Of a stretch of DNA of 64,000 nucleotides, positions 2,277-46,798 are shown in pieces. The number at the start of each line of letters is the position of its first letter. Within the stretch, counting starts at the first letter, position 1. A program made the position numbers and the translations under genes. The notes under the pieces were generated by a model. That model was not told where the DNA came from, did not search any database, and was given only the letters and a program-made list of their open reading frames with translations. Source of the stretch: Naegleria gruberi. Taxonomy: Eukaryota. The DNA lies in the NCBI GenBank assembly GCA_000004985.1, contig GG738872.1; one strand, written 5' to 3'.

Positions 2277-3245
2277 ATGGGAAATCATGTTTCAATAGAT
2301 GAGAAACCACAAACAATAGAGGACTTGTTTAAGGACTATCCCTACAGGGAACAAAACTTCTTCTCTTCTAATATCAAAATTTGGAAGTTTGAGGAATCAT
2401 CATCTGATCAGTGTGTTGTGAGTCCTCTCAATTTTACTATGGAATTTTCATCTTTCAATCCTCATCATTGCTATGTTGTTTTACATACATTTAATAAGGG
2501 TGAAGAATTTCAGAATCAGGATAATCAAAGAAAGGCCATCAAATTAACAAGTCATTCACTTCTTCAGTTAGCAGCATCCACAGTTAATTTGACTCTCCCT
2601 GGATTGGAAAATAGGTTTTGTGTGAATGATTTGCAGAATTTCTTCTTTTCGAAATGTTCTAATATTGGATTTAGAGAAAAACTTACACTTCTTGGGGAGA
2701 GCTTGAACGGATTTTCATATTGTGTCTATGTGTGGCATGGTAAGAATGCTTCAACCTTCCTTCAATCTTCATCGACCACAGCAGGATTGGACCTGGATAG
2801 AAAGCTCTTACTCAATGAAAAGGTTGTGAGAAGGGCATTCAGTTGTGGAGAGCCGTCATCCATTTGTAATTACTATCACAATGATATACCTTCCTTTACT
2901 TCTGAGAGCATTCTAGAAATCAAGAAAACAAGCTCAAGCTCGTTAGCCATTTGTATGACACTGTTTCAGTATTGCCATTTATTTAGACAGTTGATTCATA
3001 ATCCAGAGACTATTTCACAATTGCCAGATAATGTTGGAAGTAAGGATGTTGCATTCAGAGCTCTTCTCCAACTTCCACCAACTGTAGAAATCACTTCTAG
3101 TTTTCAACCAGCTGAGCAAGAGAACCAGATTCACGATAATGACATTCCAGAATATATGGCATCTCCAGCAGCTTCTCCTATTGGTTCAGAGGAGAGTGAT
3201 TCCTACCATACATCGGATGAAAGTACAGAATATTTTGATGAATAA
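2277..3245 (+). CDS. hypothetical protein (322 aa) with an N-terminal MGNHVS N-myristoylation consensus and an acidic S/E-rich C-terminus
   Basis: Uninterrupted ORF ending in TAA. No recognisable catalytic motif. MGxxxS at the N-terminus. Confidence 0.5.
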   Translation: MGNHVSIDEKPQTIEDLFKDYPYREQNFFSSNIKIWKFEESSSDQCVVSPLNFTMEFSSFNPHHCYVVLHTFNKGEEFQNQDNQRKAIKLTSHSLLQLAASTVNLTLPGLENRFCVNDLQNFFFSKCSNIGFREKLTLLGESLNGFSYCVYVWHGKNASTFLQSSSTTAGLDLDRKLLLNEKVVRRAFSCGEPSSICNYYHNDIPSFTSESILEIKKTSSSSLAICMTLFQYCHLFRQLIHNPETISQLPDNVGSKDVAFRALLQLPPTVEITSSFQPAEQENQIHDNDIPEYMASPAASPIGSEESDSYHTSDESTEYFDE

Positions 3246-3531
3246 ACAATGAAATTCGTTACCCAAACTCCAAATAATGAAAAAAGTTTGTGAGGGACTC
3301 GTTCAGGTAGTAGTATCGTCAACTTTGATACCCTACCGCTTAAATCCTTCAAATGATTAAGAAGATTTCTAAAGGCTACATAGACAGGTTATCAGAGTAC
3401 ACTTACTTCTACGTGCTCTCTGATTTAAGCAAGCTGTCCAGCCATTTACCATATAACTGTGCCTATAGTTTAAGCAAAAAATCATATTATCTAAACAAAA
3501 AATCTTTTTGAATTTATGGTTTGAAATTTAT

Positions 3532-4776
3532 TTACACAGACAACTTGATGAGTTTACCAGATGTTTTGAAACGAAGTTTCAAAAGACGAGAGTAAGAATT
3601 AGATTCATCACCAATGTAACCAGCATAGGTTGGTGTAAATATTTCAGCAGCATCTCCACCAAATGAGGTTGGATAATTCTTTCTAGAAGTGAGTGAAGAA
3701 TATTGGGTAACAGTGTGATATGTTTGACTGATGGCACTGGTATCCAAGTTTGGTGATTGAATTTGAAGTTCTCCTACAAAATCATCCTTTCCTAATGTAA
3801 CATCAATATCTGATTCCACAGTACCAACTTCAAGAACCTTAGCACCCTTGATACCATTGTGAACTTGCTTCTTCTTGTTAGCAATAAGTGTGACATTTCC
3901 TGAAGAGCCCAACATTTGAATATTTGAACCTTCCAAAGCTCCCTTAGAAGTATATAATTTCAAAGAAACAGCAGAGCTCAAATCCTTGTAATAAATATCA
4001 CCTGTTGTTGAAGTGACAAAGATAGCAGCAAAGATATTTGATAAGTAAATTTGACCTTTTCTTCCACTGACAACAAATTGACCTGCTTGGATTTGTGTCA
4101 TATTCAAGAGATTAGTTCCTCCCATAATAGTCAATGCCTTAATTGATAACATTGTAGAATTTGTTAAGCTTGGATCTGGACCGATATAAAAATTGTTGGC
4201 ATAAACGCTAGCTTGCATACTAATTGTTGTCAAAGTAGCTGGAATTCTAATAATTCTCGAAACAAAGTAACAATTTGTAAAATCAGTAGATGGAATCTTT
4301 GATGAGATTGTAATATAATCGGAACCATTTGTTGTAAGATACACTGAATTATTAATATTAGTATAGGTCTTATCTAAAAGTGAGGTTCTTTCAAAGGTGA
4401 CTTCAATTTTGTTCTTTAAAGATGGATCAAAGTAGATTGATGTCTTGGTGTCACCAGTTATATAAATTGTACTCAGTGTACTAGTATTGTATTGGAGAGT
4501 AAAACTCTGAGTGTCTCCGTATGGAAGAGTTTTCGAGCAAGAGTCATTATTCTTTGCTGAGAATGAACCAACAATGATACCTGCTACAGTAAATAGGAAA
4601 AGAATGCTCAATATGCAAATAACTGCAAGAACATCCGAAAAGGAACAATCAATTGTTTTTGTGGGTATAAAAGCTTGTGTTTCTTCCTTAGCCATTCTTG
4701 TTATTCTTGTTGTATATACAATTTTAGTTATTGATGAAGATGAATTTAAAAGCAATAAAAATAGGAGATGAAACAA
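3532..4776 (-). CDS. hypothetical single-pass (type II-like) membrane protein, S/T/N-rich, probably a glycosylated beta-rich ectodomain. Start likely the internal Met at about 4695 (MAKEETQ).
   Basis: ORF of 414 aa. Hydrophobic segment VLAVICILSILFLFTVAGIIVGSF near the N-terminus. Many NxS/T sites. Confidence 0.5.
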   Translation of the reverse strand: MFHLLFLLLLNSSSSITKIVYTTRITRMAKEETQAFIPTKTIDCSFSDVLAVICILSILFLFTVAGIIVGSFSAKNNDSCSKTLPYGDTQSFTLQYNTSTLSTIYITGDTKTSIYFDPSLKNKIEVTFERTSLLDKTYTNINNSVYLTTNGSDYITISSKIPSTDFTNCYFVSRIIRIPATLTTISMQASVYANNFYIGPDPSLTNSTMLSIKALTIMGGTNLLNMTQIQAGQFVVSGRKGQIYLSNIFAAIFVTSTTGDIYYKDLSSAVSLKLYTSKGALEGSNIQMLGSSGNVTLIANKKKQVHNGIKGAKVLEVGTVESDIDVTLGKDDFVGELQIQSPNLDTSAISQTYHTVTQYSSLTSRKNYPTSFGGDAAEIFTPTYAGYIGDESNSYSRLLKLRFKTSGKLIKLSV

Positions 4777-5223: not shown

Positions 5224-5297
5224 TACCGACAATGGGGCTCGAACCCACGACCCCAGGATTAGAAGTCCTGTGCTCTATCCAACTGAGCTATGACGGC
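5224..5297 (-). tRNA. tRNA-Arg (anticodon TCT)
   Basis: Cloverleaf read by hand on the minus strand: GCCGTCA / TA / GCTC-AGTTGGATA-GAGC / CAGGA-CTTCTAA-TCCTG / GGGTC / GTGGG-TTCGAGC-CCCAT / TGTCGGT+A. There is one T.T mispair in the acceptor stem. A T-run follows downstream in the transcribed direction. Confidence 0.8.
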
Positions 5298-10979: not shown

Positions 10980-13004
10980 TTATTTATCATAAACATTATG
11001 TGAACCAATATTCATGTTGCCTGATATTTCCATAAGAATATTTTCTCTTCTATTTCCACTAAAAGTACATCTATCAATACTACCACGTGAATCATCCTTC
11101 ACCCAAATACCACTTTGTCTTCCTGAGCTGATTTTACAACCAAAAATGGTAGCTGTTGAACTACCTCCCAGTTTGATGTTTGTAAATTGATTGCTGTAAA
11201 TTTCAGTGTCTTGTAATTTAAGAGTACCATTACCTTTGGCTGAAATGCCAGTTTGCTTTCCATTATATACTTTACAATTCTCTATTTTTGCTTCGGATGT
11301 GTCAACTGATAAAATATTTGGATTATTGTTTTGGTAAATTGAACAATCTTTGACTGTAGCACTTGCATAACCTCTAACAAGAATTCCATTCTTTGTATTG
11401 TCATGAATGTCACATGAACACAAAATTGGTCCTGCTCTTCCTCCAACATCAACCCCAGATGATGTGTGTCCATAAATGTGATCGTACTCGAATATTGGTT
11501 TACAAAGATCCTTAAGCACAATACCTCGTAATTCTTCATTTTGTTTCTTTGTGCCTGTAAAATAAATAGTGTTAGAATGGAAGCTTGGCTTGGCAAACTC
11601 AGATACCAAAACATTCTTTCCAAAGTTATCATAAATAGAATTATTCTTAATTTCTGATGAGCATTTTCCTTTGGCCCAAATTCCAAAAGAAAGACCATCC
11701 CTAATCTTGTTATTAACAATTTCAGCATCAGAATCCTCGGTAATATATACATTTGGATAGGCATTTTGATAAATGTCGTTTTCCTCTATCTTTCCACCAG
11801 CATCCATTTTGAGAACTATACCATTCTCCTTGCAGTTGTGGATTTCATTTCTCGAAATAAATGGTTTGGCCTTATGTGATACAAATATGCCAGATCTTTT
11901 GTTGTTAGAAATAATATTCGAAATAATATGTGGATGAGAGTTATCACGAATGAATATTCCTCCAGATTTGCCATCAGAAATATCATTATTCTTAAGTATT
12001 GGATGAGACTTTCCTCTACAAGTAACACCCTCATAATTGTTTCTTAATATTTTGTTGTTTTTGATAATACCACTAGCATTCTTGCAAAATAAAATACCAA
12101 TCTTTGTACAATCCATAATGGAACAATTAGCAATAATTGGCTCTGCAAAGCCAGTCAAGTATAAACCATGTTCTACACTTGACATTATGTAACAATTAAG
12201 GATCTGGGTCTGGAATGAATTTTCAACTCTAGGACCGTCTACTTCTAACAATCCAGTATTTCTACTGCTTGTTGCTGGATCAATCTCTGAGCTACAGTCA
12301 TGATAAAAGGCCAAGTTAGAAAGTGTCACGTAATTTTCCACTACAGACATTAGGGGAACAGGTTGTGTACAAATAATTTTCACATTTGCTGGATTTTCTC
12401 CTGTAATATGTACACCTTCGACATTTACTGTTATGGTACTAGATACCTTATGTATGCCCGGACTTACTTGAATAGTATCATAAGGTAAAGCATTGGCTAA
12501 TGCTGCCTCAATAGAATGATAATGAGAAGGCTCATTGGAAACGTATAAAGTTCTTTTTCCTGCTCTCCTATCATCCAAATCTATTGCTACAATTTTCTTC
12601 TTTTTAGTTTTTGGAGCCATATCACATGATGATGAAGATGAATAATTGTTAGAAATATTTCTAAGTGGTTCTCTATCATCATTAGCAAAATTTCTCTTTC
12701 TCTTTTGCATGTTGGATTTTGGAATTTCATTTTCATCGGTCAATGAACATTTTGTCTTAAGCTCGGAAGTAATACCAAATGTTGAATCATTCAGAGAATT
12801 ACTAGATAAAATCATATTGTGAGGAGTTATTGTTGTTTGTTTAATACCAAACCAGCCTGACTCGAGATCAAGTCGGGTTTTGCTATCCTCCTCTACAATA
12901 ACTTCTTCATCGTCAATACCAAACAAATCCATATTGATTGCACGTGTTGGTGTTGGGGTTACTAGTTTGTCATTATCAAAATCTAACGAAAAGGACGGAA
13001 ACAT
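10980..13004 (-). CDS. right-handed parallel beta-helix (PbH1/CASH) repeat protein
   Basis: 674-aa ORF with about 10 repeats of the form N.I..N...GI.V..........N.I, typical of pectate-lyase-fold PbH1/CASH domains as in FBXO11. The N-terminus is disordered. Confidence 0.6.
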   Translation of the reverse strand: MFPSFSLDFDNDKLVTPTPTRAINMDLFGIDDEEVIVEEDSKTRLDLESGWFGIKQTTITPHNMILSSNSLNDSTFGITSELKTKCSLTDENEIPKSNMQKRKRNFANDDREPLRNISNNYSSSSSCDMAPKTKKKKIVAIDLDDRRAGKRTLYVSNEPSHYHSIEAALANALPYDTIQVSPGIHKVSSTITVNVEGVHITGENPANVKIICTQPVPLMSVVENYVTLSNLAFYHDCSSEIDPATSSRNTGLLEVDGPRVENSFQTQILNCYIMSSVEHGLYLTGFAEPIIANCSIMDCTKIGILFCKNASGIIKNNKILRNNYEGVTCRGKSHPILKNNDISDGKSGGIFIRDNSHPHIISNIISNNKRSGIFVSHKAKPFISRNEIHNCKENGIVLKMDAGGKIEENDIYQNAYPNVYITEDSDAEIVNNKIRDGLSFGIWAKGKCSSEIKNNSIYDNFGKNVLVSEFAKPSFHSNTIYFTGTKKQNEELRGIVLKDLCKPIFEYDHIYGHTSSGVDVGGRAGPILCSCDIHDNTKNGILVRGYASATVKDCSIYQNNNPNILSVDTSEAKIENCKVYNGKQTGISAKGNGTLKLQDTEIYSNQFTNIKLGGSSTATIFGCKISSGRQSGIWVKDDSRGSIDRCTFSGNRRENILMEISGNMNIGSHNVYDK

Positions 13005-13346: not shown

Positions 13347-15779
13347 ATGTTGCCAACTCTACAATCATTGTTTGATCCGATTGTCGGATCGGTGGAGAAG
13401 GCACTAGAAGGATTTGAAGAAGAAAATCAAGTGATATTCAATAGAGAATTGATAAGAGGTATTTATTTGTTCGGCTCACAGGTTTACTTTTGTAGGAAAC
13501 ATGGAGTATTAGATGAAACTTATTCCAAGTTAAAGTTTCAAACAAAAGATGATGAAATATTGGAATATTTGGATGATTCCGATTTTGATTTAATAATAGT
13601 GTGTGATGAGATGGTTTCTAGGAATTTTAGTGAAGGTGGATTGGCTGCTGATTTGCAATTTAAATTATATTTTGATTTACCAATTAAAACTTTTGATGGA
13701 AAAGAGTTGGAAGTGGAATTTGAAGTGTCTTTGGTTAATACTAAATACTTTATTTCATTTGTGAACTATCATCAACCTGTGCTGTTGCAACTTATTTGTG
13801 AGGAGAAATTAGACGAAAGATTTGTCATTTACGAAGAGGATTCAATGAGAAGGTGGAGAAGAGAATTTGGAAATTATTTTCTAAGAATTCCAAGGCTGAA
13901 ATATGCCTTCATTCACGAGTTAAATTATTCCATGAACAAATCTTTTAGATTTTGGAATTCATACATTGAGAGCTCACAAACGGATGAGACTTCATTGAAA
14001 AAAGTCAAGAAGAATATCTGTCACGGTTACAGATTGTTGAGGGTATGTTTCATTGAAGATAGTCATATTTAAACTTTATAGTTTGCTCACCAAATCCTGA
14101 TTCATGGAAGTGTATCTGACTTTTCAGAAACCAATGACTTTTACCAGCAAGTGTTTGTCAAGACGCAAAATTATACCTCTTGGAAGGAATATGAACAAGA
14201 ATATCAGAAATTTTATGATGACCTTGAAGAAAAATTTGAATCTCTTTGTAATTTTATTTTGGATAAGGCTGAGTCCTTACTTGTTGGAAATAGCTCAGAA
14301 CTAGCTATACTATCCTTTTTAAGGGAATCAAAACAAATCACCGATGAGTTTTTACATATATCCAACACGGATAATAGAAGTGTTGCTGTAAACTCTTTAG
14401 ATTTTCTGTACAGAGGAACAAGTAGCTCTTCAAGATTATTCTCATTAAGGGTTCACCCATTTGACTCACTTAAAACCACATTCGAGTTTTCACTAGATCC
14501 TCGCATTCATAGATCTGAAAATCCTCTCCTATATTTCAAAAGAGAAGATATTCGACAATGTAACGGATTGGTTGTGGAACAAATGGAAGGAACGAACAGA
14601 GCTATTTGCCTTCCGAGACCTCAATTACTTGATGTGAGAGAGTTTGAAAAGAGGGTTGGATCTGTAGAGCAAGAAAAGATCAACGCATTCTTATTCAATT
14701 CGGTCAAATACTACAGATGCTTCAAAAAACCATTTGGAAAGAATGTAAATATGTTTTTTGCATCTGATAACTGGGTACTAGCTTCCCCAGATTTGGATTT
14801 TAATGACTGGAAAGATACAATCTATTTGAGGAGGAAAGATACATGTTGGAGGAAAGATTTTTGGGACTGCTTTAATGATCTAGGAATGAAAAATCCTACC
14901 GATAGAACCAGTACTTTTATGTTTTGTTGGAATACGACCAGAAATAGCATTATGTTTGTTGGTAGCATTAAAAATGAGACCTATGTAGAGAATGTATTTG
15001 AATATGAAGAAACTGGAAAGAATTTGAATTGGGAGGTGATAGAAAGAGTTGCATCCTTGGATTTGGAAAAATGTTCACTCCTATCAATGAAAGAACAAAA
15101 TGAATGGATGTCCTCTCTTTCTCAAACTGTAATAGAGCTTAATCCTGAAATTTATGAGGGATTGCTATTTATTTCTCTTGAAAATCATTCAACAATTAAT
15201 TATCATGAATATAGAGCTTTTGAAATGAAGTGCCCTGTTCATCACCATATCAAAATACTCAATCTAACAAATAAGAATTATCCTAGCAGTGAGGTTCTTG
15301 ATTCTGTTGTAATTGAAAATCCACCTAGATCACTTATTAATTCTGACAAGATTGACCAACACCTTCTTGAGTGTGCGGTTCTTTCCAATTTTGATATCAC
15401 CCAAACAATTAGAGAAATTAATCCACTCTTCCAAGCCCCTTATAAGACTGTGCTAGAGAAATACGAAAGACTATGTCTTGATATTGACTCATTCTACCAT
15501 GAACAAATCCAGCAACACCCACTTTCAAAAATCAGCTCACTTTCCCTTCGCCTTTGCTTGAATCAACAAAAAATCCCTCAAAAACAACTCAAAGACCTTG
15601 TATTCAGACTCAAAACTTTTGAGGAATCTAGAAGTGATCCATTACTCAAATCTCACACTTTCTTTCAACATTTCATTTCACTATTACAGGTCCAACCGAA
15701 TCAGAAAAAGGCACGAGTTGAATTACAAACATTAATCAAACTTATCAAAATCTATGATTCCTCAAATACTCTGTACTAA
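13347..15779 (+). CDS. large hypothetical protein of about 770 aa. Two exons: 13347..14042 and 14082..15779, with a 39-nt GTATGT...TATAG intron.
   Basis: ORFs 13347..14072 and 14151..15779 are in phase across the GTATGT/TATAG intron, removing the TAA at 14070. No confident domain. There is a weak nucleotidyltransferase-like GS...DSDFD pattern near the N-terminus. Confidence 0.5.
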
Positions 15780-18262: not shown

Positions 18263-19780
18263 TTAAAACCCATCATTCATTAATGAAACATTCATTTCCC
18301 TATTTCCAAAAGTTGGTTTTTCTTCTTTTTTATCCGATTCCAAATTAGTTCCTCCAAGACAATCATTTAAAGATCCCATAACCTTATTGACCTTTCGAAT
18401 ATTGGCAGTCTTTCTAAACACTTTAATGAAAATCATCTCAAAGAACAAAACCAACCAAGCCAACACAAAGAAAATAATCAATAATAAGAAAATTCCCCAA
18501 AAATCATGAATTGTAATTCCAGACGAAATTGTGACTTCTTCCTCTCCAGAATGACAACTTCCCTTATCAACCCACCACGATTGAAACAATCGATTCACAA
18601 CTCCACTCTCCCTTAATTCCAATAAAATTACAGAAATATCTTCCATTAATTTCTGATCTGGACTAGCTGTCATATTTCTAGAAATTGCCAAAGCCATATT
18701 CTTTTGATCGAATAGCTCACCAACTTTGAGTGTATCACAAGGAGCCTGATTGGCCACATACTCCACGATTGTATTATCCCAAATAATTGCCTCAATCTCA
18801 TTCTTCCTCAATGCATTCACACAACCATCCAAATCAGGATAAAGAATCATATTCTTTCTAATATCTGCCATTTCATTCGATGTTTTAATATACTCAGCAG
18901 GGTCAGAATTAGCTGGAACTCCAAATTTAAATCCATACTTTCTCAAATCGGAGAGTGAAGTAATTTTTGTTACCTGAATTTTGGTTGTTAAAAAAGCTGC
19001 CAAATTTGCAGTGTAAGTTGCCAAGCAAATCATGGCAAAGATAAAGTAACCAATCATCATGATACGCGTGCTCCAACTTCTGCCAGTTTCACCTCCTGAA
19101 ATTCCTGTGATTGTTGACATGGAATTGAGAAAACTTGAAGATATGGTCAAGTTACTCTTGTCATTATCTTCAGATTCAAGTTTAGAATAACCAAATGGTG
19201 ATAATCTATCAAAAATCCATGAAAATATGCCAATGAGAAAGACTGAAACCAATATTAGAATCCAAACTTCATACGAAAATGGTTTCAGAAATGAGAATGG
19301 ATTATCAGATTCGTCAGCTTTAGGTACCAAAATTGATAAACCAGTATCCAGATAACTTGGTGTGAATTGTATCACAGGATATCTCACAGATGAAACTGAA
19401 AGTGGTCCAACAGCAACATGTGCCTTTCCACTTATCAAATCTCCAATCATTCCATTCCAAACATATTGTAAAGTGCCATCAGAAGTTTTGACTTGTTGTC
19501 TACTTCCGAATAAACCATCTTCTACTTCATAGAGCTCGAGTGATACGTTGTGTAATCGTGATGTAATTTCTCTGAATATATCAATGAGAAATCCATAATA
19601 TCTTCCATCTTGAGAAGTTTCGTTTCTGTTAATAAATACGAAAGGTGGTTGATGAATGGCTACTCCACGAATTGTCATGTCCTTGGTTGCGTAGGCAGAA
19701 ATAACTTGTAATTTAGCATGAAGAAACAATACAAGTAAAAGGAAGGATAAATGCAGCAAACGAGACTTTCGAATAATCAT
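18263..19780 (-). CDS. ionotropic glutamate receptor-like ligand-gated channel lacking an amino-terminal domain (GluR0-like architecture)
   Basis: Signal peptide. S1 lobe with WNGMIGDL...AVGPLSV...R...F..PY. M1 is FSYEVWILILVSVFLIGIF. A pore-loop region follows. The hallmark M3 motif YTANLAAFLT is present. S2 lobe is KYGFKFGVP...WD. M4 is FWGIFLLLIIFFVLAWLV. Confidence 0.75.
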   Translation of the reverse strand: MIIRKSRLLHLSFLLLVLFLHAKLQVISAYATKDMTIRGVAIHQPPFVFINRNETSQDGRYYGFLIDIFREITSRLHNVSLELYEVEDGLFGSRQQVKTSDGTLQYVWNGMIGDLISGKAHVAVGPLSVSSVRYPVIQFTPSYLDTGLSILVPKADESDNPFSFLKPFSYEVWILILVSVFLIGIFSWIFDRLSPFGYSKLESEDNDKSNLTISSSFLNSMSTITGISGGETGRSWSTRIMMIGYFIFAMICLATYTANLAAFLTTKIQVTKITSLSDLRKYGFKFGVPANSDPAEYIKTSNEMADIRKNMILYPDLDGCVNALRKNEIEAIIWDNTIVEYVANQAPCDTLKVGELFDQKNMALAISRNMTASPDQKLMEDISVILLELRESGVVNRLFQSWWVDKGSCHSGEEEVTISSGITIHDFWGIFLLLIIFFVLAWLVLFFEMIFIKVFRKTANIRKVNKVMGSLNDCLGGTNLESDKKEEKPTFGNREMNVSLMNDGF

Positions 19781-20189
19781 GTGATTGATTAGGATAGGTG
19801 ATGTGAAGCTTTTTTTCTGTTTGATTTGCAGGAGTGTGAAACCAAAATGTTCCTCTGGTATTTGCTATCGTGCCAATTTTGGTGGAGTTTGTTGTTTTCA
19901 GTCAACTTGGCAACACGGACCAATACCAATTCTTCCACTCGCATTGTAAACATCACACTATTCGAAAGTGGCAGAAAAGTCTCCCAATTGTTTTCTTAAT
20001 AGATTAATCCAATAACATGTGTTGTTATTCCTCAATAGAAGTAACATTTAGATTTTTGAACATTTACAGTTTTTGGAATGAAAACTAAAATTTTCGTTCT
20101 TTCGTATTCACAAACTTCACGTTCATTCTAAGATCTATTTTTGTAACCTGGAAAAAAACAAAATATTTCGATCAAATAATAGAAAAAAA

Positions 20190-21119: not shown

Positions 21120-23316
21120 TTAAAGATCTGAATTGTTAGGATTTGAATCTATAACACTCGACAAGTAACCAGCATCACCTGGATCATTATAAGAGAATCC
21201 AGAAAATGATGGAGATTGAGATGCTTTGAAAGGAGTTTTTGGCATAATCATTCCTTGTTCCTTAGCATTAAGTAAATTATCAGCTACGAGTGTTCCATTT
21301 TCAGAAATGTTATTACCCAAAATCTTTTGAAGATTTTCATTTGGATTATCAGAAAGTGGTGGTTTAAATGGAGGAGGAATTTGTTTTTGTAACATTAAAT
21401 CCCAATCAATATCATCAAAGAATGGATGTGATTTGATTTCTTCAATTCCATTAGCACCTAATCTTTCTTCTGGTTTCTTTACAAGTAATCTGTCCAATAA
21501 ATCAACCACAACACTTCTTTCAACTGGTTGAGCATATTTTACACCCTTGATTGGATCATCATAAACAGTGATAGTCCTCGAAGTGGCTTCTGTAATTTCC
21601 TTTGGATAAACTGGATGTGTATGAATAATTTGTTCGTACAATTCTTTTCTATTGCTACCACGGAATGGTGATCTACCTGTCAAAAATTCAAATAACAAAA
21701 CACCCATTGACCAATAATCAACTGCTTTACCATGTGGCATTCCTTTGATAATTTCAGGCTGTTTCAAAATATATTATTAAATTCAAAAAAAACAGTTATA
21801 TTTAAAAATATATAAATATATATTAATAATATTTAAATAATAAATAAATAATAAATACATGAGAAAAGATAATAACTACTTACACTAAGATAATCAGGAG
21901 TACCACAGAAAGTTCTAGTTTTTGTACCTGAAGAATTACCACCAACACTGGTAATTCCTTCTTTAGCAAGACCAAAATCTGTCAATTTGATGTGACCGTC
22001 AGAATTCAACAAAATATTCTCAGGTTTCAAATCTCTGTATATAATATCATTACTATGAAGATATTCAATAGCAAGAATAACTTCACACAAGTAAAATTTG
22101 GTCAATTCCAATGGGAAACGATGAACTCTTCTCAAATGGCCGAACAATTCACCTCCAGGAATAAATTGTAAACACACTATTGTTATCAATATTAAAATTT
22201 CAACATGAATGGGAAAGAAGTTCAAGTTTCAAATCACACTAAAAATCTCAATATCTACTTACTGTACAATTTGTCTTCAGCTTGGAATGAATGATACATT
22301 TTGATAATGAAAGGATGTCTATGATTTGATAAAACTCTCTTCTCTGTAATTGTGTGTTCAACTTGATTTCTTCGTTTAATTTCAGATTTATCCAAAACTT
22401 TGAGTGCATAAATTTGACGAGTGTCCTTCTTTCTCACAAGACAAACCTTTGAAAAACTTCCTTCACCAATAACTTTTAACAATTCAAAACTGTGAATTCC
22501 AATCTTTTTACCCATAAAAGCAGCCAATTGTTGTTGTTGATGCAAAGTTGGAGCTTCATGATCTTGACCACCAAATTGACCAGTAGAAGAAGAGGAAGTA
22601 GAAGAATTACCACCACTACTGACATTTGTAGTACTACTACTACTATTACCAATAGTAGTAGAAGTAGAGGTACTAGTATATTGTTGATCGATTCCTTTTG
22701 TTGTTATTGTGGAAATGGCTGTGGCTGTAGGAGTAATGTGACCTGAAGGAGAAGAATTGGATGGTGGATTGAAAGTAGAAGCCATATTCATTTGTGAAAC
22801 ATAATCACCAATATATGCTCCATATCCATTGTATTGTTGTGCATTATTAATTGGTAATCTATCACTGTACAATTGATAAAATACCTTTGTAATCCTATCC
22901 AATTGTTCATCAGATTCACATTCAAATTGATATTTCTTAATAACTTTTAAAAACAGAGTTGGTTTACCACCACCATTATTATTAGAATTGGTATTTGATA
23001 AAGATTGACTTGATGACAAATTTGTTGTTGGTGTTGAAACTTGAGAAGATGAATTGGAAGCATTATTTAGTGGTCCTGGTTCAATTCCAAATAAATCTGT
23101 TATATGAAAATACCACTGTCTTGATTTACCCTTCATATTTGAAATACCATCATCAGAAAAAACTAATTCTCTCTTTTGACGAGCTCCTCTACGGTTGATC
23201 TTGACTAATTCAAAGGAAATACGTGGAGTTTGTTTAGAGAGGATATCTTGTTGAATTTCACTCCCTTTTCCTTCTTTACCACCCCAAACTTTTTCAAATT
23301 TTCTTCTTACGGACAT
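21120..23316 (-). CDS. AGC-family Ser/Thr kinase with an N-terminal PH-like domain (Akt/PKB-like). Three exons: about 22263..23316, about 21886..22176 and 21120..21758.
   Basis: Exon 1 carries GEGSFSKV and ALKVL. Exon 2 carries [23 protein letters not shown] and TFCGTPDYL. Exon 3 carries [20 protein letters not shown] and an AGC C-terminal tail with FSGFSY. Introns are GTAAGT...AG, 86 and about 126 nt. Confidence 0.8.
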
Positions 23317-23912: not shown

Positions 23913-25472
23913 ATGTTGGCAACTCCATCAACACCACCTCAGCAACAACAACAAGCCAATACTACTACCACCACAACTACAACAACATCCTCCTCAACAT
24001 CGGCTGTTTCTGGTGGTGAAGATCAATTGTTGAAATTTTTTGCTAGCAAATTATCGAGTCTCAATGTACCTACATCATTAGAAGCATCATCATCGGAGGA
24101 TAAAGCAAATAATCCAATTAATAAGATTGTGTTTGCTGATTTGGAGAAGGAATTTTCAGATATTGTTGGTAAATTATTATCGAATGAGGATGTTTGTAAA
24201 AAAGTTGATTTGTTCTTGTTAGATTTATTCACAAGTGAAAAGAGTACACAATCAACAAATTCTGATTACGAATTGTATGAAAATTATATTAGAGTTGCCT
24301 ATTATTTATACTTGTTGAGTAGTAGAGAAAGCACAAAGAATAATTTTGATTTAATATTATTACAACATGTTCCTATTTGTCTCTATGTTTATTTCCAAAC
24401 TAAAAACAATTCCAAACTTGATGAAACTCAACAATTATTCCTCTCTAAAATTGAATCTGTACTCTTACTGATCTACAATAATGAAGGTGTTAAGAGACGT
24501 GAAACACCTGATAATGAAAAGACCTTGACTTTTATTGCAAGTCAAATTAATGGTATTAAAACAAGATATAATAATACTGAAAAGATTAATGCAACTATAA
24601 CACCATCAAAGTCGGATCCAACTCTTTCCACAAGTTTATTATTGGGTTCGTCTCATGCCAATGAAGATTTTTACACTGGTATTTCATCTAAAACACTCTA
24701 TGTTAGAAGTGAACTCATGAAAAATCAAGAATCTCTCTATCCATTATTTTTCAGAGATCACGAAAGTTCTCTCCCACTTGCAACTGAAATTAATGATAAG
24801 GTTTTAGGAGTTGTTTGCCAAACATTTTCAAAGAGATTGGATGTTTTGTCATTAGGGTCAATTTTCACATTTATGAGAGTTGTTCAAAAATTAGTTTCAC
24901 AAAAAGTACCATACAGAATTCCTACAATGGAACAAGTTGAAATTATTAGAACTAGAAATGAACAAGCCAAGAAAATTATGGAAGAAAGTTTGAAAGTTAT
25001 CAGAGAAGATACTACTCATGAATCTCAATCAGCTGGTACATCAGAATTCACTAGTTCAATTAGTGAAACTGAAATTCAACTTGATATTGAAACTCCAACA
25101 CCAAAGAAAGATAAGAAGAAGAAAATGTACTATCACGAATATCTCACTCAACTTGATTTAATAACAATGTATTCTGAACATTATGGAGATGTGGAATCTA
25201 ACGAATCCACAAATGAGCCAGTCAATGCAAGAAGAATTCCTCTCTCTGAGAGCTTTATCAATGAAACACTTGCCGTTCTCAAACATACCTCCCAAAGTTT
25301 GGACAAGTTATCCCAACAATATGCTCCACAAGATTTATTTGGTTCAAAACAAACTTCATCTAAGGCAGTTATTGTTGAAGTATTGTATGCTGTTTATTTG
25401 CGATTAATTTATGATTTTGTAGATTCTAGATCACTGTTACAAGTTCAGTCAATGCTAAAAATGTTAGATTAA
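23913..25472 (+). CDS. hypothetical protein (519 aa) with poly-Q/poly-T N-terminus
   Basis: Long ORF with coding-like composition. No motif recognised. Confidence 0.5.
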   Translation: MLATPSTPPQQQQQANTTTTTTTTTSSSTSAVSGGEDQLLKFFASKLSSLNVPTSLEASSSEDKANNPINKIVFADLEKEFSDIVGKLLSNEDVCKKVDLFLLDLFTSEKSTQSTNSDYELYENYIRVAYYLYLLSSRESTKNNFDLILLQHVPICLYVYFQTKNNSKLDETQQLFLSKIESVLLLIYNNEGVKRRETPDNEKTLTFIASQINGIKTRYNNTEKINATITPSKSDPTLSTSLLLGSSHANEDFYTGISSKTLYVRSELMKNQESLYPLFFRDHESSLPLATEINDKVLGVVCQTFSKRLDVLSLGSIFTFMRVVQKLVSQKVPYRIPTMEQVEIIRTRNEQAKKIMEESLKVIREDTTHESQSAGTSEFTSSISETEIQLDIETPTPKKDKKKKMYYHEYLTQLDLITMYSEHYGDVESNESTNEPVNARRIPLSESFINETLAVLKHTSQSLDKLSQQYAPQDLFGSKQTSSKAVIVEVLYAVYLRLIYDFVDSRSLLQVQSMLKMLD

Positions 25473-28254: not shown

Positions 28255-28327
28255 GCCGACATAGCTCAGTTGGGAGAGCGTAAGACTGAAGATCTTAAGG
28301 TCCCTGGTTCGATCCCTGGTGTCGGCA
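28255..28327 (+). tRNA. tRNA-Phe (anticodon GAA)
   Basis: GCCGACATAGCTCAGTTGGGAGAGCGTAAGACTGAAGATCTTAAGGTCCCTGGTTCGATCCCTGGTGTCGGCA is near-identical to canonical eukaryotic tRNA-Phe. Perfect 7-bp acceptor stem. One T.T mispair in the T-stem. Confidence 0.9.
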
Positions 28328-28531: not shown

Positions 28532-31500
28532 TTAGAAAGTTCTTGTTGTATCATTATCAAGTGGAACAATCTTATTCATCAAGTTACGAATAGGGAAGAA
28601 TTTTTCACTTCTTCCAGTGAGTGAACTAACAATCACATGTGTAGCATATGCTCTGTAACCGTTATCCTTATCGCACAATAAATTGAAAGTAACCTTAAAG
28701 GTAGGTAAAATCTCCTCAGAATGAATCAAAACACTTTCCTGTTGTTGAACTTCGTAATTGTACTTGATTTCTTGCATAGTAATTCTCTTTGGTGGTAAGA
28801 ATCCCTTTGGGCCTGCCATTCCCAAAGATAGGAATTTTCTCTGATTATTCATGCATTGATAGGCAAAAGCTTGAACCCTATTGACTGTGTCATAGACCAT
28901 ACAAACAGATCTATCATTCAAACCATTCAATTCCACATTATTAAATGATTCTTCAGTGTGTAGAGGCAAATCATTGGAGTAAGGAACAACATAGGTCATT
29001 TCCAATTCTCTCTTCTTTCCCTTCGAGTCTTCAATGCTTAAACGAACTTGGAGAGGATTAGGATAACATGTTGGAAGATATCTATCAGCTGGTTTCATAC
29101 GAGCGGAAAGTCCTTTGCATGGCAATTCAGAAGTCACAAAGTACTCCAAAGTGGCACCTGCACCAATATTGAAAGTGTCCAAGAACACTTCATTAACTTG
29201 ATTATAGTCTTTCACGGCAATGATTTTGAATGAAAATGGATCTTCCTTTAAAACTAAAACACCATCATTGTAACCTGCTTGTGTACCATCCATGGCTACC
29301 CAATTTCCGTTGGAGTCCTTATACTCAACCATAATTTTGGTTACAGAGAGAGGTGTGCTTGAAGAATTAACAAAGTAAACTTTTGTTAGAGTAAAGTTAC
29401 ATTCGAAAGATGGTTCATTTCCAACCGTACGTTGACTGTGAATGTTTTGGAGGAGGCAAAAGAATTCATGTCTATCAGAAAGACGTGCCAAACTTGGAAT
29501 TCTCAAACGAATATCACTATCACCAGAATCTGAATAAACTTTCAATGTGGATGGATCAATTGGTTTTGGAGTTTGAATTGGCTTATCAATCACTTCCTTA
29601 TGATTTTGCTCAATAAACTTGTTATAATAATCAATTAGACTCTTTTCGTCTCCTAGAATTGATTGCTCATCTAGTTTTTCATTTTCTTGAATGATGGTCT
29701 TATACTTGGTCTCTATTGGAGTGTATGGAGCTAGAGCATACAATCTAAACATACCAAGGACAATATTTTGTCCATTTCCTCTTTCTAATTTCCAATATCT
29801 TGCTTTAACCCCATCATTTATAGTTCCATCATATTCTTCAGTTTGTGGAAATTGTAAAACATTCAATTTAGGATGAGTTTTGACATTATTAAGGGTGGTC
29901 AATAAAATCCAAGGATCTTCTTTTCTGACTTTGTAGTAGAGTGTGACATTGTTGACATTCAAAGCTTGATAGGACTTTTCATAAAGGGAATGAGTTAAAA
30001 ATTCTACACGTTTAAAGAGGTGAGCTTGTTCATATTCAATTTCAATTGAAGATTTGTGTATATACAAATCATTAATTGCACAGACTCCAAATGAGCAAGA
30101 GCTATCAAGCATACCGCTAATACAATTGTCAGCATATCCAATTTGAGGATTAGAGCTGCTCAATAACTTAACTGGAACTACATTTACTTCAGTACCTTGA
30201 TAGGTGGAGAGGTATGAAGCTCCGATTTCTTTCTTTGGTGGAATGACACCAATCAGATTTTGTATTGGTGTGTATGGAGCATAAGCAAACATTTTCAACA
30301 TTCCAAAGCACACATCACCTGAATGAGGACGATCGAATTTCCAGTATCTGGCCTTGGTTCCATTCAACTTGACAAAGGTATGTTCACCATTCTCCCCAAC
30401 ATTTTGAATGGTTGTAAACAATGTCCATGGTTCTGATTCTTTCAACTTGTAGGAAACGTTGACATCTTTCAAGAATTCACTTCCTCTATTAAAGCCAAAG
30501 TTTTGATGAGCAAACAATTCCATATATCTGAACTTGAAAACTTGCCCAAAATCAAATGAAAATCGAGGCTGAACTGTATTTGTTGTACCCATTCCAAACA
30601 TTCCCGATTCATCTAATAATCCAGGAATGGTATTATTGAAATAGTCATCCAACATGGTTGAAGTAAAGCTGACAGGGGCAACAAGATTAATCTCATTGCC
30701 AGTATATTGAGGTTCATACTTTGCGAGCTCTGCCTCTCTAGTCAAAACCTCACCAGTTTTGGTCTTGTATGCAATGTATGGAGCAAGGGCATACATACGT
30801 AACATTCCAAATGAAATACGTTCTATTGTACCTCTTGGTCTGGAGAATTTCCAATATTTGGCAGTAACTCCATCCCCTGCAAGTTGAATGGTATTCTTGA
30901 CTCGATTGATCTTGACATTTTCAAGTGTGAGAGCTGGAATCCATGGTTCAAATTCTCTGACCTTGTAGTGAACTTCAACTTTGTTTAAATAATCTCTTTG
31001 AGGAGAATCTCCGTACATTGGACATGCAATAAATTCAAAATGTTTGAATACATATACAGCATCAAAATTAAGAATCATATGACTTCCATATACTCTTTCG
31101 GTGGTGTAACCATAATCAGCAGTGTCATCTAAAAGACCCTCAATGGTATTATCATTTCTGTCAGTTTTAGATCCTGTAATTCTTAATGGAGCCACAACAT
31201 TGATTTCATTTCCTGTATAGGAAGGTTTCATTAATGCTAATTCCTCTTCCTTTCTTAAAATAGTTCCATTCATTGTCTTGATTGGAATATATGGAGAAAG
31301 TCCATAGAATCTCACCATTCCCAAAACAACATTATCCATTCCACCCTTGGAGAATCTCCAAAATTGTGCCTTTAAATCATTTAACTGAATAGTATTGGTA
31401 TGGAGGTCTCCATTCAATCCGTTTAAGGTTGTTACATTTGTCCATTGATCGCCTGAGTTTAGCTTGCATGAAATTTTAACATTGTTAAGCTTAAGGTCAG

Positions 31501-32965
31501 AATCAGATGCCTTAGAGTGAGCTTTAATTTCAATATATTTGAAAATGTGAGGCTTATCAAAGTTGACATCAATGTAGGAATCCATTCCAAAATAGGTACG
31601 AGCTCCATAACCTGCTGATTCATCCAAGAGACCTTGAACAGTGTTGTCATCAGAATAGGAAGTAGAACTGAATTTGAGGCTTGCTGGTTCAATAACGTTG
31701 ACTTCTGTTGTTGTGACAACAGCTTCCTCAATCATTGGTTGAGCTACTGGAGTTGAAACAGGAGTTGACTGAGCAGCGACAACAGGTTGGATTACTGGCG
31801 AAGATGTAACTGAAACAGTTGGTTGCGAAACAACATTTGAAACTGGAGGAGTTGATGGTACATTTGGCTGGATAACAACTTGTTGAACAACAGTTTCAAC
31901 AACTGGAGAAGACACAACTGGAGGTTTAATCTCGCTCTCTACAGGTTTAACTAGTGGTGGAATAATTCCAGTCTTGGTCTTAATTTCTCGATAAGGAGCT
32001 AAAGCATAAACTCTCAACATACCAAAGATAATCTCATCACTTCCTGATCTTAATTCGAATTTCAAATGCTTTATAACAAGTCCGTCCCCACCAAAACTCA
32101 TGGTATTAATATGGCGATTTGGTTTTGGTGTTGGCAACATATCGATTAACTTCCATCCTTCATAATCCTTTGATTTGTAGAACACATCGATATTTTTCAA
32201 ATGAGCAATTTGATTAGAGTCTCCATACTTGATATGTGTCATGTATTCAATATATTTTGCCACATACGGAGCATCAAAACTGAGAATTATATGAGCTTTC
32301 ATAGTTCCAGTTGTTGAATAACCATGATTACCGGTATCATCCAGCAAACCTTCAATAGTGTTGGCAATGCCAGACCAACTACCAATCTTTGATCCGCCAA
32401 TTTTCACAGGTTCAATTACATTGACATCTGGTCCTGTGTATGCTGGTGTGGAAAGAGCTAGCTCTTGCTCTTTTGTATAAACTTGACCTTTCTTAGTAAT
32501 GATTGGAGTAAAAGGAGCAATGGCATAAAATCTGGCCATTCCGATAGCAAAATCATTATTTCCTTTTTTTGATAACCTCCAAAACTTGGCATTGATTCCA
32601 TCACCAAATTCATAGATATGAACAAAGTGACCTCCCTTAACATCGTTGATAGTGAGCACAGGAGTCCATTGATCTGTATCGTTCAACTTGTATGAAAGAT
32701 CAGTTCCGTTCAATCTGTTTGGGCCATCATAACATGCCATATGACACTTAACTTCAAGCTTGGTAAATACATGTGGATGATCGAAATTAACATTGATAAA
32801 TGGATCCATTCCAAAGTATGTAGCAGCACCACATTCTGCACTTTCATCCAACAATCCAGCGACTGTATTGTCACCAATTGAGGAAGATCTACTTATCTTG
32901 AGTGATGATGGGGCAACAACATTGCTTTCCAATAATTGACTACAACTGGAAGGAACAAAAACCAT
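28532..32965 (-). CDS. 1477-aa protein with six tandem F5/8-type-C (discoidin-like, galactose-binding-like) domains, a mucin-like P/S/T/V linker and a distinct about 450-aa C-terminal region
   Basis: About 150-aa repeats each end in A[RK][FY]W[KR][FL]...FGM[LVF][RK]hYAhAPY, reminiscent of ARYVRL...YGC of FA58C domains. Each starts with N.I.GLLD[DE]S..YG. Linker PPVVSSPVVETVVQQVVIQPNVPSTPP. Confidence 0.6.
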   Translation of the reverse strand: MVFVPSSCSQLLESNVVAPSSLKISRSSSIGDNTVAGLLDESAECGAATYFGMDPFINVNFDHPHVFTKLEVKCHMACYDGPNRLNGTDLSYKLNDTDQWTPVLTINDVKGGHFVHIYEFGDGINAKFWRLSKKGNNDFAIGMARFYAIAPFTPIITKKGQVYTKEQELALSTPAYTGPDVNVIEPVKIGGSKIGSWSGIANTIEGLLDDTGNHGYSTTGTMKAHIILSFDAPYVAKYIEYMTHIKYGDSNQIAHLKNIDVFYKSKDYEGWKLIDMLPTPKPNRHINTMSFGGDGLVIKHLKFELRSGSDEIIFGMLRVYALAPYREIKTKTGIIPPLVKPVESEIKPPVVSSPVVETVVQQVVIQPNVPSTPPVSNVVSQPTVSVTSSPVIQPVVAAQSTPVSTPVAQPMIEEAVVTTTEVNVIEPASLKFSSTSYSDDNTVQGLLDESAGYGARTYFGMDSYIDVNFDKPHIFKYIEIKAHSKASDSDLKLNNVKISCKLNSGDQWTNVTTLNGLNGDLHTNTIQLNDLKAQFWRFSKGGMDNVVLGMVRFYGLSPYIPIKTMNGTILRKEEELALMKPSYTGNEINVVAPLRITGSKTDRNDNTIEGLLDDTADYGYTTERVYGSHMILNFDAVYVFKHFEFIACPMYGDSPQRDYLNKVEVHYKVREFEPWIPALTLENVKINRVKNTIQLAGDGVTAKYWKFSRPRGTIERISFGMLRMYALAPYIAYKTKTGEVLTREAELAKYEPQYTGNEINLVAPVSFTSTMLDDYFNNTIPGLLDESGMFGMGTTNTVQPRFSFDFGQVFKFRYMELFAHQNFGFNRGSEFLKDVNVSYKLKESEPWTLFTTIQNVGENGEHTFVKLNGTKARYWKFDRPHSGDVCFGMLKMFAYAPYTPIQNLIGVIPPKKEIGASYLSTYQGTEVNVVPVKLLSSSNPQIGYADNCISGMLDSSCSFGVCAINDLYIHKSSIEIEYEQAHLFKRVEFLTHSLYEKSYQALNVNNVTLYYKVRKEDPWILLTTLNNVKTHPKLNVLQFPQTEEYDGTINDGVKARYWKLERGNGQNIVLGMFRLYALAPYTPIETKYKTIIQENEKLDEQSILGDEKSLIDYYNKFIEQNHKEVIDKPIQTPKPIDPSTLKVYSDSGDSDIRLRIPSLARLSDRHEFFCLLQNIHSQRTVGNEPSFECNFTLTKVYFVNSSSTPLSVTKIMVEYKDSNGNWVAMDGTQAGYNDGVLVLKEDPFSFKIIAVKDYNQVNEVFLDTFNIGAGATLEYFVTSELPCKGLSARMKPADRYLPTCYPNPLQVRLSIEDSKGKKRELEMTYVVPYSNDLPLHTEESFNNVELNGLNDRSVCMVYDTVNRVQAFAYQCMNNQRKFLSLGMAGPKGFLPPKRITMQEIKYNYEVQQQESVLIHSEEILPTFKVTFNLLCDKDNGYRAYATHVIVSSLTGRSEKFFPIRNLMNKIVPLDNDTTRTF

Positions 32966-45500: not shown

Positions 45501-46798
45501 TTCTTTTCAAGTAAAACGTCTAAAAACTTTCTAATGAGTATTCCCTCACAAACAATTACTTGCATACCAGAAGTATCAATAATTGAGTTCAATTCTGGAG
45601 TGGATCTAGAAGGTTGAAGCCCAACTGTGGTAAATCCATTCCATGAACACATCAAATCAACAAGGGTATATTCAAATCTATTCTCATTTGTTGAAATACC
45701 AATCATTACTTCATTCTGATTTCCTGATAATAACCCTGAAAATCCAAGTGAACAATAGAACAATTCCTCCCTAACATCAGAGTAGGTTCTATACTTGAAT
45801 GTGTTTCCATGTCTAACTCCAACACAAGGTCTGTCATTATAGGTTCTAAACATGTTATTGACAAAAGTGTGAAGATTAGGAGAATTCAAAATATTCAATT
45901 TCATGAATACTACATCATTGTTCTCCAATATATATGGATAACCAAAGAAAGGATCCAATATTTTGATCTTTTCGTATAAATCTCTGTCATTTTCTTCTAA
46001 TTTGATTGTGTCAGTATTAATATCAAACTCTATTTGCTTTTTGAAACAAACTTGTTCAATTGTTTTCATCCAACCATAACAATGTTCACACTTGACAGAA
46101 TTCTTATCATTTGAAGAGATGCACCGATATCTAGGATTTCCCTCTCCAAGACCACCTGATTGAATGACCCAATCGCAAACTCCACATCGATCCTCCCATA
46201 AATTATCTCCAAATCGATCAGTAATTTTCCCAGAGTTGAATTCAACAGTACCTCCTCCGTTTCCCGAATCAAATGAACTACTATAAGTAACTTGCCATGG
46301 TAAATTAATATTCGCACTCTTCAATTCATTCGATAATTCATCCAATTCTCTAACAAACTTTTCATTCAATTTTGCAGATTCAATCATTTTCGGATTTTCC
46401 TCCAAATCATTGATCTTTCCCTGATTTTCAATAATAATAGTCTTGAACTCTCTCAATTCCCTCAAAAACTCATCAATATTCAAACAAGAACTATTATCAT
46501 CATTTTGATCATCATTTTGTAATTTCTTATTAATTTGTTCAATCTTTTCCATTCTCAATTTTACAAACTCTTCCTGAACAATCTTAAAATCAGCCCTCAA
46601 TTTCTCACTCTCCACCACATAGGTCCTTCTCACTAAATTACCCAACCGCAACAATTCAACAATTCTCTCAAAATAATTTTCACTCCTCTCCGGATTTAAA
46701 GATTTTAAATTCTCACAGTCGGCATAACAAGACTTTAAAAAGGGAAATTCTAATAGGATAGCAGTGTCATGATTTTTGATTTCAAGTTCTTGAGACAT
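42570..46798 (-). CDS. NRPS-like adenylation / peptidyl-carrier / thioester-reductase (A-T-R) enzyme, about 1349 aa, four exons: about 44767..46798, 44579..44724, 43909..44532 and 42570..43817. Carboxylic-acid-reductase or Lys2-like architecture with an about 340-aa N-terminal extension.
   Basis: Adenylation domain: A3 is LIFTSGSTSKAKGCII, A5 is EGFGCSECGG (after intron 1), A7 is YKTGDIV, and A10 is PSGKVSR. Carrier motif FTEMGGTSI is split by intron 3. Reductase domain has ITGGTGFVGSHL and YSQTKWVAE (YxxxK). Introns are 42-91 nt, GTAAGT or GTTTGT. ORFs 44759..46798, 43900..44442 and 42570..43802 are the exons. Confidence 0.75.

Follow-up and report, generated by a model that had tools for sequence, protein, structure and literature searches.

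A Naegleria gruberi gene for a member of the ionotropic glutamate receptor superfamily that lacks the amino-terminal domain

Introduction

Among described ionotropic glutamate receptors (iGluRs), those closest to the gene considered here form a clade of Discoba and Amoebozoa that appeared in a peer-reviewed phylogeny in 2025 (Commun Biol; PMC12226733). The gene is an open reading frame (ORF) at 18263..19780, minus strand, in a 64,000-nucleotide stretch of Naegleria gruberi DNA (GenBank assembly GCA_000004985.1, contig GG738872.1), which as a whole we call the window, and its annotated product, XP_002676467.1, is itself a member of that clade. In the available part of the paper's text, the clade figures only as a branch of the tree; the design without an amino-terminal domain (ATD), the missing signal peptide, the ligand pocket, the glycine at the selectivity site and the motif beyond M4 that we report below are not described there. 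We find that the ORF encodes a genuine ATD-less member of the iGluR superfamily, and the protein is probably a subunit of a ligand-gated channel of that family, from an ATD-less protist clade, that would work by the mechanism set out in the Discussion.

A second point of comparison is bacterial GluR0 (Synechocystis slr1257), which Chen et al. in 1999 reportedly described as a prokaryotic channel of two transmembrane (TM) segments and a P-loop that has a TXVGYG potassium filter and no M4. The Naegleria protein shares with it the absence of an ATD and a ligand-binding domain (LBD) related to periplasmic binding proteins. The TXVGYG filter of GluR0 is also documented in PMC3483616, as is the gating of some plant GLRs by several amino acids; these receptors belong to the same superfamily and likewise occur in hosts without a nervous system, but they carry an ATD and a YTASLTS-type gate, whereas the Naegleria motif reads YTANLAAF. 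Many arthropod IRs also lack an ATD, and their ligand-contact positions vary, consistent with chemosensory diversification (PMC2924276). However, the IRs branched off from animal iGluRs within the protostomes and show no supported grouping with the Naegleria protein, and IR25a, which is among the top named matches, keeps an ATD-like region.

The animal receptors GluN1 and GluD resemble the Naegleria protein in the fold of the LBD and transmembrane domain (TMD), the M3 gate, the S2 cysteines, the presence of M4 and, in GluA2 numbering, in Ser653, a hydrophobic residue at 655 and the pair Trp704-Asp705. They differ from it in that the Naegleria protein has no ATD, a short tail, Gly instead of Asn or Gln at the Q/R/N site and Met instead of Phe or Tyr at 732; it shares about 30% identity with them and does not nest within either subfamily.

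Domain layout and fold

The ORF runs from an ATG through 505 codons to a stop in one intact exon. The initial annotation had reported a 505-residue ORF at this place, with no strand given, and had read it as an iGluR homolog in a protist with a signal peptide, S1 and S2 lobes and three TM segments; hydropathy, Pfam and an AlphaFold2 model agree with this layout, and the host is N. gruberi. Both Pfam profiles that it had proposed match strongly, PF00060 (Lig_chan) at 109.8 bits (cut-off, 30.8; E value, 1.3e-31) and PF10613 (Lig_chan-Glu_bd) at 78.5 bits (cut-off, 30; E value, 5.3e-22) over residues 40-154. Searched against PDB sequences with phmmer, the protein aligns with GluA2 (2e-54) and GluN1 (1.3e-53), in one alignment over residues 36-453. 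This level of matching is far beyond chance.

Kyte-Doolittle hydropathy marks a leader at residues 1-29 and TM segments at 172-190, 240-264 and 429-447, the last of which, M4, has a hydropathy of 3.12. The AlphaFold2 model, for which an alignment of 32 sequences was used, has a mean pLDDT of 83.6 and places M1 at 170-193, a pore helix at 213-225, M3 at 236-265 and a long M4 helix at 424-474; in a Foldseek search it matches, at about 1e-30, LBD-TMD chains from GluA1-4, GluN1 and GluK2. Read from the N terminus, a signal peptide thus precedes S1 and M1, a re-entrant pore loop lies between M1 and M3, and S2, M4 and a short cytoplasmic tail follow. The gate motif stands in the topology expected of the family, not by chance in a different kind of protein. 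The features are as follows.

18263..19780, minus strand: complete coding sequence of the iGluR-family subunit; residues 35-505 equal XP_002676467.1 / NAEGRDRAFT_58252; profile and sequence matches
19694..19780, minus strand: signal peptide, residues 1-29, MIIRKSRLLHLSFLLLVLFLHAKLQVISA; from hydropathy and leaders in orthologues; absent from the reference model
19676..19678, minus strand: Met35, start codon of the RefSeq/EukProt model; from comparison with XP_002676467.1
19301..19675, minus strand: S1 half of the LBD, residues 36-160, with F64, P126, S128 and R133; from PF10613 and alignments
19202..19273, minus strand: M1 helix, residues 170-193; from hydropathy and AlphaFold2
19076..19144, minus strand: M2, the re-entrant pore helix with its selectivity loop, residues 213-235, TITGISGGETGRS; from the AlphaFold2 helix at 213-225, alignment and flank anchoring
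18986..19075, minus strand: M3 helix, residues 236-265; from hydropathy, AlphaFold2 and alignment
18986..19015, minus strand: gate motif YTANLAAFLT, residues 256-265; from alignment
18521..18985, minus strand: S2 half of the LBD, residues 266-420, with S292-D293-P294, W334-D335, M362 and C348/C409; from alignments
18425..18511, minus strand: M4 helix, residues 424-452; from hydropathy and AlphaFold2
18266..18424, minus strand: cytoplasmic C-terminal tail, residues 453-505; from alignment
19781..20189, no strand: intergenic region of 409 bp shared with the divergent gene NAEGRDRAFT_80013, which begins at 20190; from the ORF map

The gate motif had been singled out as near-invariant, and so it proved for most of its positions: within T255-YTANLAAF-L-T265, all 32 aligned iGluRs share Y256, T257, A258, N259, A262, F263 and T265. 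In the same alignment R133, the equivalent of GluA2 R485, is invariant and C348/C409, the equivalents of the C718/C773 pair, are nearly so; from their conservation, the two cysteines are predicted to form the S2 disulfide. The reported lack of an ATD also held, since the Pfam search found PF01094 neither in the ORF nor in its immediate neighbors, and the 409 bp that separate the gene from its divergent neighbor leave no room for an upstream ATD (about 380 residues, an exon of about 1.1 kb).

Gene model

The gene is already annotated, though with a shortened N terminus, and both gene and clade are in the 2025 phylogeny, so that its existence is not new. XP_002676467.1, 'hypothetical protein NAEGRDRAFT_58252', is the EukProt entry EP00686_P008538 in Supplementary file 4 of PMC12226733 and is identical to residues 35-505 of the ORF; a reading of the locus as an unannotated gene was ruled out by this entry. 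The description of such receptors as poorly characterized in the initial annotation thus holds for their function but not for their place in the literature. The annotated protein of this very locus is missing from the results of our word-indexed and exhaustive protein searches, and their blanks do not equal absence. The word-indexed search also missed a 51%-identical paralogue and most protist relatives, its candidates being saturated by animal iGluRs, and a profile search of the same kind of database with the family alignment was likewise swamped by animal iGluRs and missed relatives such as P0128 and P0131-P0141, even though these stood in the query alignment.

The reference model (471 residues) begins at Met35 and omits 34 upstream in-frame codons (19676-19780), including the signal peptide. 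An N-terminal hydrophobic leader is also found in two orthologues (L001 and P0130) and in most full-length family members, and the Met35 column holds Thr or Val, never Met, in these two orthologues, with a conserved 'KD' just upstream. Together, the leaders and the missing Met support the 505-residue model better than a start at Met35. The upstream ATG is further favored by the need of an extracellular LBD for a signal peptide. Judged by these comparisons, 34 codons should be added to the RefSeq model at its N terminus, and XP_002676467.1 as annotated, if expressed, would probably give a mis-targeted protein.

Three N. gruberi paralogues are present in the published dataset, XP_002676467.1, XP_002681313.1 and XP_002677912.1; within the 64,000-nucleotide window, the receptor gene has no paralogue. 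The models of XP_002677912.1 (P0128 in our set) and XP_002681313.1, on other N. gruberi scaffolds, start midway through S1, with 'M[TS]NVSIEFYE', and so miss the signal peptide and the beginning of S1, and XP_002677912.1 also misses M1 and the M1-M2 loop. Both of these models look defective by sequence.

Relatives and phylogeny

An exhaustive HMMER search gave 5404 matches at E <= 1e-3. The top matches are short ATD-less proteins of 326-592 residues (some of them fragments), with 31-59% identity and E values from 1e-97 to 1e-53, and every animal receptor ranks below this series, at 1e-50 or weaker; no plant GLR is among the top 150 matches. Where a relative bears a source label, the source is a eukaryote, namely XP_002677912.1 of N. 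gruberi, proteins of Pyxidicula operculata and Pelomyxa schiedti (the latter named 'delta-2') and one unnamed EukProt entry. The protein belongs to the ATD-less iGluR clade of Discoba and Amoebozoa in PMC12226733.

The orthologue L001, a protein of 492 residues that shares the layout of the Naegleria protein and is 57% identical to it, is encoded on a metagenomic contig of 4.9 kb beside an adenylate/guanylate cyclase gene. Identity to it is 70% in M3, 67% in M1 and 64% in S1 and falls to 25% in the tail. The proportions of differing sites are 0.30 for nonsynonymous (pN) and 0.73 for synonymous sites (pS), the latter being saturated, so that dN/dS is an upper bound only. With pN far below pS and the core better conserved than the tail, the pair shows purifying selection on a functional channel core.

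Neighbor-joining (NJ) trees were computed from Kimura distances over 389-392 core columns with 200 bootstraps. In the tree without outgroups, one bipartition with 88% support separates 20 ATD-less protist-type sequences from 97 animal-type sequences, and the ATD-less group joins the NMDA-type branch, also with 88%. This reproduces the position of the clade in PMC12226733, beside the NMDA-type receptors and outside the animal subfamilies. The protein has about 30% identity to GluA2 and to GluN1 and is about equidistant from both, with no supported nesting in animal subfamilies. Core distances are 1.9-2.1 for plant, cryptist and diplonemid sequences (1.9-2.0 for Selaginella GLR3), compared with 1.3-1.8 for animal receptors. 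An initial NJ tree that contained only matches of the word-indexed search put the protein next to insect and myriapod sequences on long branches and next to a fragment; it was discarded as an artifact of long branches or of the fragment once the true relatives were available.

Outside the protist clade, the best named matches come from animals (AMPA, kainate and IR25a receptors, with about 30% identity) and not from plant GLRs, which might point to contamination with animal DNA or to a recent horizontal transfer from an animal. We consider this exceedingly improbable. The gene is flanked by exact N. gruberi genes (XP_002676388, D2VHS5, D2VHT1 and D2VHT5) on a scaffold of 413,107 bp, its GC content of 0.35 is that of the window, N. 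gruberi has three paralogues, and the orthologue lies on a protist-like contig. Contamination and recent animal transfer are moreover excluded by the position of the clade, which is not nested in any animal subfamily. An animal origin is thus effectively refuted by the genomic context.

Likewise, the relatives bear on the initial framing of the architecture as GluR0-like, under which the protein might be a prokaryote-like, K+-selective, glutamate-gated channel with two TM segments, possibly acquired from bacteria. It is compact and has no ATD, it gives weak matches to periplasmic binding-protein profiles (SBP_bac_3, 41.6 bits, 1.3e-10; TIGR01096, 1.8e-10), and several relatives have names from prokaryote pipelines. 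Every NCBIfam match is, however, far below its cut-off, and the likeness to GluR0 goes no further than the missing ATD, as M4, the S2 cysteine pair, the animal-type TYTANLAAF gate, the absence of a TXVGYG filter and the eukaryotic relatives all contradict it. Relatives with bacterial names lie on eukaryotic contigs. P0135, for instance, is encoded on a gene-dense metagenomic contig of 253 kb (Ga0401357_00056, JGI 3300037860; L003) next to genes for a kinase-IQ protein, a DYW-type PPR protein, ankyrin proteins, a WGR-PARP and ThrE, neighbors that identify the contig as part of a protist genome. Its IMG name, 'ABC-type amino acid transport substrate-binding protein', is a misleading prokaryote-pipeline label, and the bacterial relatives that such names suggested were rejected because this context is plainly eukaryotic.

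A scan for [ST]YTANLAAF over 185,579 bacterial and archaeal genomes returned one confirmed locus. It lies at 3001-3960 of a 13.6-kb contig (CAXXBX010000090.1; L002) in a metagenome-assembled genome (MAG) named 'Dehalococcoidia bacterium', with four ORFs of at least 100 residues in 7 kb. This low, eukaryote-like ORF density suggests a contaminant eukaryotic contig in a bacterial MAG. A GluR0-type channel is therefore very improbable here, and that reading is largely refuted. Of the phylogeny that the initial annotation had called for, NJ trees with animal receptors and Selaginella GLR3 were run; they place the protein outside the animal subfamilies.

Ligand pocket

Pocket residues were mapped onto GluA2 numbering. 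The mapping returned the right residues for the references, with G-S-T / L-E / Y in GluA2 and S-S-V(I) / W-D in GluN1 and GluD. For the Naegleria protein, it gave the following.

GluA2 position 450: F64 (Y450 in GluA2)
GluA2 position 478: P126 (P478 in GluA2)
GluA2 position 480: S128 (T480 in GluA2)
GluA2 position 485: R133 (R485 in GluA2, which binds the ligand alpha-carboxylate)
GluA2 position 653: S292
GluA2 position 654: D293
GluA2 position 655: P294
GluA2 position 704: W334
GluA2 position 705: D335 (the aspartate for the alpha-amino group)
GluA2 position 708: I338
GluA2 position 732: M362

According to the part of PMC12226733 that deals with ligand specificity, a glutamate-type pocket has Gly, Ser or Thr at 653 together with Thr655 and Tyr732, and a glycine/D-serine-type pocket has Ser653, a hydrophobic residue at 655 (Pro included) and Phe732. 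Under this rule, the Naegleria pocket is not of the glutamate type and is of the glycine type at two of the three positions. Beyond the rule positions, Trp-Asp at 704-705 is GluN1/GluD-like. A Trp at the 704-equivalent position is said to occlude glutamate in GluN1, as Furukawa and Gouaux reportedly found in 2003. The lack of Thr655 and Tyr732 and the S-D-P / W-D signature together make glycine or a small neutral amino acid likelier than glutamate, and we tentatively suggest that the agonist would be glycine or another small neutral amino acid.

The family name and the 'delta-2' label of the Pelomyxa protein suggest a genuine L-glutamate-gated receptor instead, and the backbone contacts of R133, P126, S128 and D335 would suit any alpha-amino acid, glutamate included. 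However, Thr655, Tyr732 and Leu704 of the glutamate signature are replaced by Pro294, Met362 and Trp334 (for the rule, see PMC12226733), and Asp293 adds a negative charge near the would-be gamma-carboxylate site. Gating by L-glutamate thus seems unlikely.

Pore and selectivity site

The pore loop reads TITGISGGE. The string that the initial annotation gave for it, NSMSTITGISGGETGRS, corresponds to residues 219-235, and its remark that neither a potassium-channel filter nor an animal Q/R site is visible agrees with our data: no T-x-V-G-Y-G was found in the pore loop by regular expression or alignment, and the selectivity site has no Q, R or N. The Q/R/N column is occupied by Gly226, as seen both in an L-INS-i alignment and in one without gaps that was fixed at the NS..WF and RS flanks; the placement rests on these two, since a fast alignment mis-registered the column and showed G for GluA2. 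The clade consensus of the pore is [TV]-G-Q-G-G-[EN], compared with M-Q-Q-G-C-D in animals, and the N. gruberi pore has one extra residue, with I-S in place of Q, relative to the orthologue and other clade members. Downstream of Gly226 lies the acidic E231, as D590 does in GluA2. Taken together, Gly at the Q/R/N site, E231 and the lack of a potassium filter suggest that the pore would most likely be a non-selective cation pore.

A motif beyond M4

At 21-34 residues past the conserved Glu that closes M4, there is a motif with the consensus L-K-Y-[LIV]-H-R-F-L-G-G. In the Naegleria protein, it corresponds to the following feature.

18350..18373, minus strand: SLNDCLGG, residues 470-477, in the cytoplasmic tail; from the clade alignment

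The pattern [FLCIM][LF]G[GRAH] occurs at this position in 14 of the 22 clade members and in none of 102 other receptors. AlphaFold2 confidence is low at the motif (pLDDT, about 57-65). On these counts, the post-M4 'FLGG' motif is specific to the clade, and we found no earlier description of it.

Genomic context

The neighbors of the receptor gene are ordinary eukaryotic genes, encoding a filamin/CH protein, RRP12, YEATS, HROB, cyclin, Josephin and PIG-H proteins and kinases. At 21120-21767 and 22255-23316, both on the minus strand, a kinase domain is spread over two ORFs (profile positions 166-263 and 1-74), with its middle in neither, which points to introns in an otherwise intron-poor stretch. 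A giant-virus origin, brought to mind by the high ORF density, was rejected in view of the cellular neighbors, the intron-split kinase, the four exact N. gruberi matches and a scan of IMG/VR that returned nothing related.

On the minus strand at 42570-46798, a tandem AMP-binding ORF (44759-46798), an ORF of 180 residues (43900-44442) and a reductase ORF with the NAD_binding_4 'male sterility' domain (42570-43802) are probably exons of one gene resembling carboxylate reductases/aminoadipate reductases. The ORF at 10980-13004 (minus strand; 674 residues) consists of right-handed beta-helix/NosD repeats (Beta_helix, 9e-63), a domain more typical of bacteria, which makes the gene a possible candidate for horizontal transfer. 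Two tRNA genes were seen, tRNA-Arg(TCT) at 5224-5297 (minus strand) and tRNA-Phe(GAA) at 28255-28327 (plus strand). Three large ORFs had no Pfam match at E <= 1e-3, at 28532-32965 (minus strand; 1477 residues), 14151-15779 (plus strand; 542 residues) and 23913-25472 (plus strand; 519 residues), the last of which is the N. gruberi 'predicted protein' D2VHS5.

Discussion

If the protein is, as we think probable, a subunit of a ligand-gated channel, four subunits would form a cation channel, by analogy with iGluRs whose structures have been solved or currents recorded. Binding of an extracellular amino acid would close the S1/S2 clamshell, closure would pull on the bundle crossing of M3 (TYTANLAAF), and the pore would open to let cations pass the re-entrant loop. 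A plausible role would be the sensing of external amino acids by a free-living, bacterivorous amoeba.

Several points weigh against this picture. The literature search found no electrophysiology, ligand-binding or expression work on the protein or on clade members; nor did it find papers that join Naegleria or Heterolobosea with iGluRs, and a 2026 preprint on glutamatergic evolution does not include these receptors. When sequences of the published dataset are added (N. gruberi's third paralogue, Selaginella GLR3 and sequences of Klebsormidium, cryptists and diplonemids), the topology stays the same but support falls to 52% for the clade and to 41% for its joining of the NMDA-type branch, in trees computed by NJ only. 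In the pocket, position 732 holds Met where the glycine rule asks for Phe, and Asp at 654 is unusual. D335 is replaced by Ala in the orthologue, and an Asp at 705 is present in about half of the clade, the other members having A, N, V, F, T or P; the agonist may therefore vary across the clade, and some of its proteins may leak or be atypical in another way.

The variability at 705 resembles that of chemosensory IRs and also recalls placozoan AKDF1. In Trichoplax, loss of D705 in AKDF1 leads to leak currents, which ligands block, according to the part of PMC12226733 that treats it. Following this precedent, the Naegleria protein might be a constitutively leaking member of the family whose leak is blocked by ligand, or a non-conducting one, as GluD was once thought to be, that serves as a binding or adhesion module. 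The pore loop is odd in that Gly occupies the Q/R/N site and one residue is inserted compared with the clade, and the orthologue is among those members that have lost the aspartate. Nevertheless, the Naegleria protein keeps both D335 and R133, the equivalent of the latter being retained in most clade members, and the gate motif and M3 are its most conserved parts, which argues for selection on gating. We thus regard a leaking or non-conducting receptor as improbable and a channel opened by an extracellular amino acid as the better reading of the locus.

In summary, our study adds to a known gene a model extended by a signal peptide, a pocket signature, a Gly at the Q/R/N site and a post-M4 motif. 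From these come predictions of a GluN1/GluD-like, glycine-type pocket, of Gly at the selectivity site and of a conserved motif beyond M4, all drawn from sequence comparison. It is an old question whether early eukaryotes already had iGluRs or transfer spread them, and Croset et al. 2010 (PMC2924276) had found them absent from the unicellular eukaryotes then examined; the clade of Discoba and Amoebozoa bears on the answer. Possibly, and we put this forward tentatively, the ATD-less receptors of these groups represent the ancestral eukaryotic iGluR design, with LBD, pore and M4 preceding the gain of an ATD. The Naegleria protein might then be a non-selective cation channel gated by glycine or a small amino acid, by which the amoeba would sense its prey or environment, and L-K-Y-x-H-R-F-L-G-G may be a trafficking or regulatory element.

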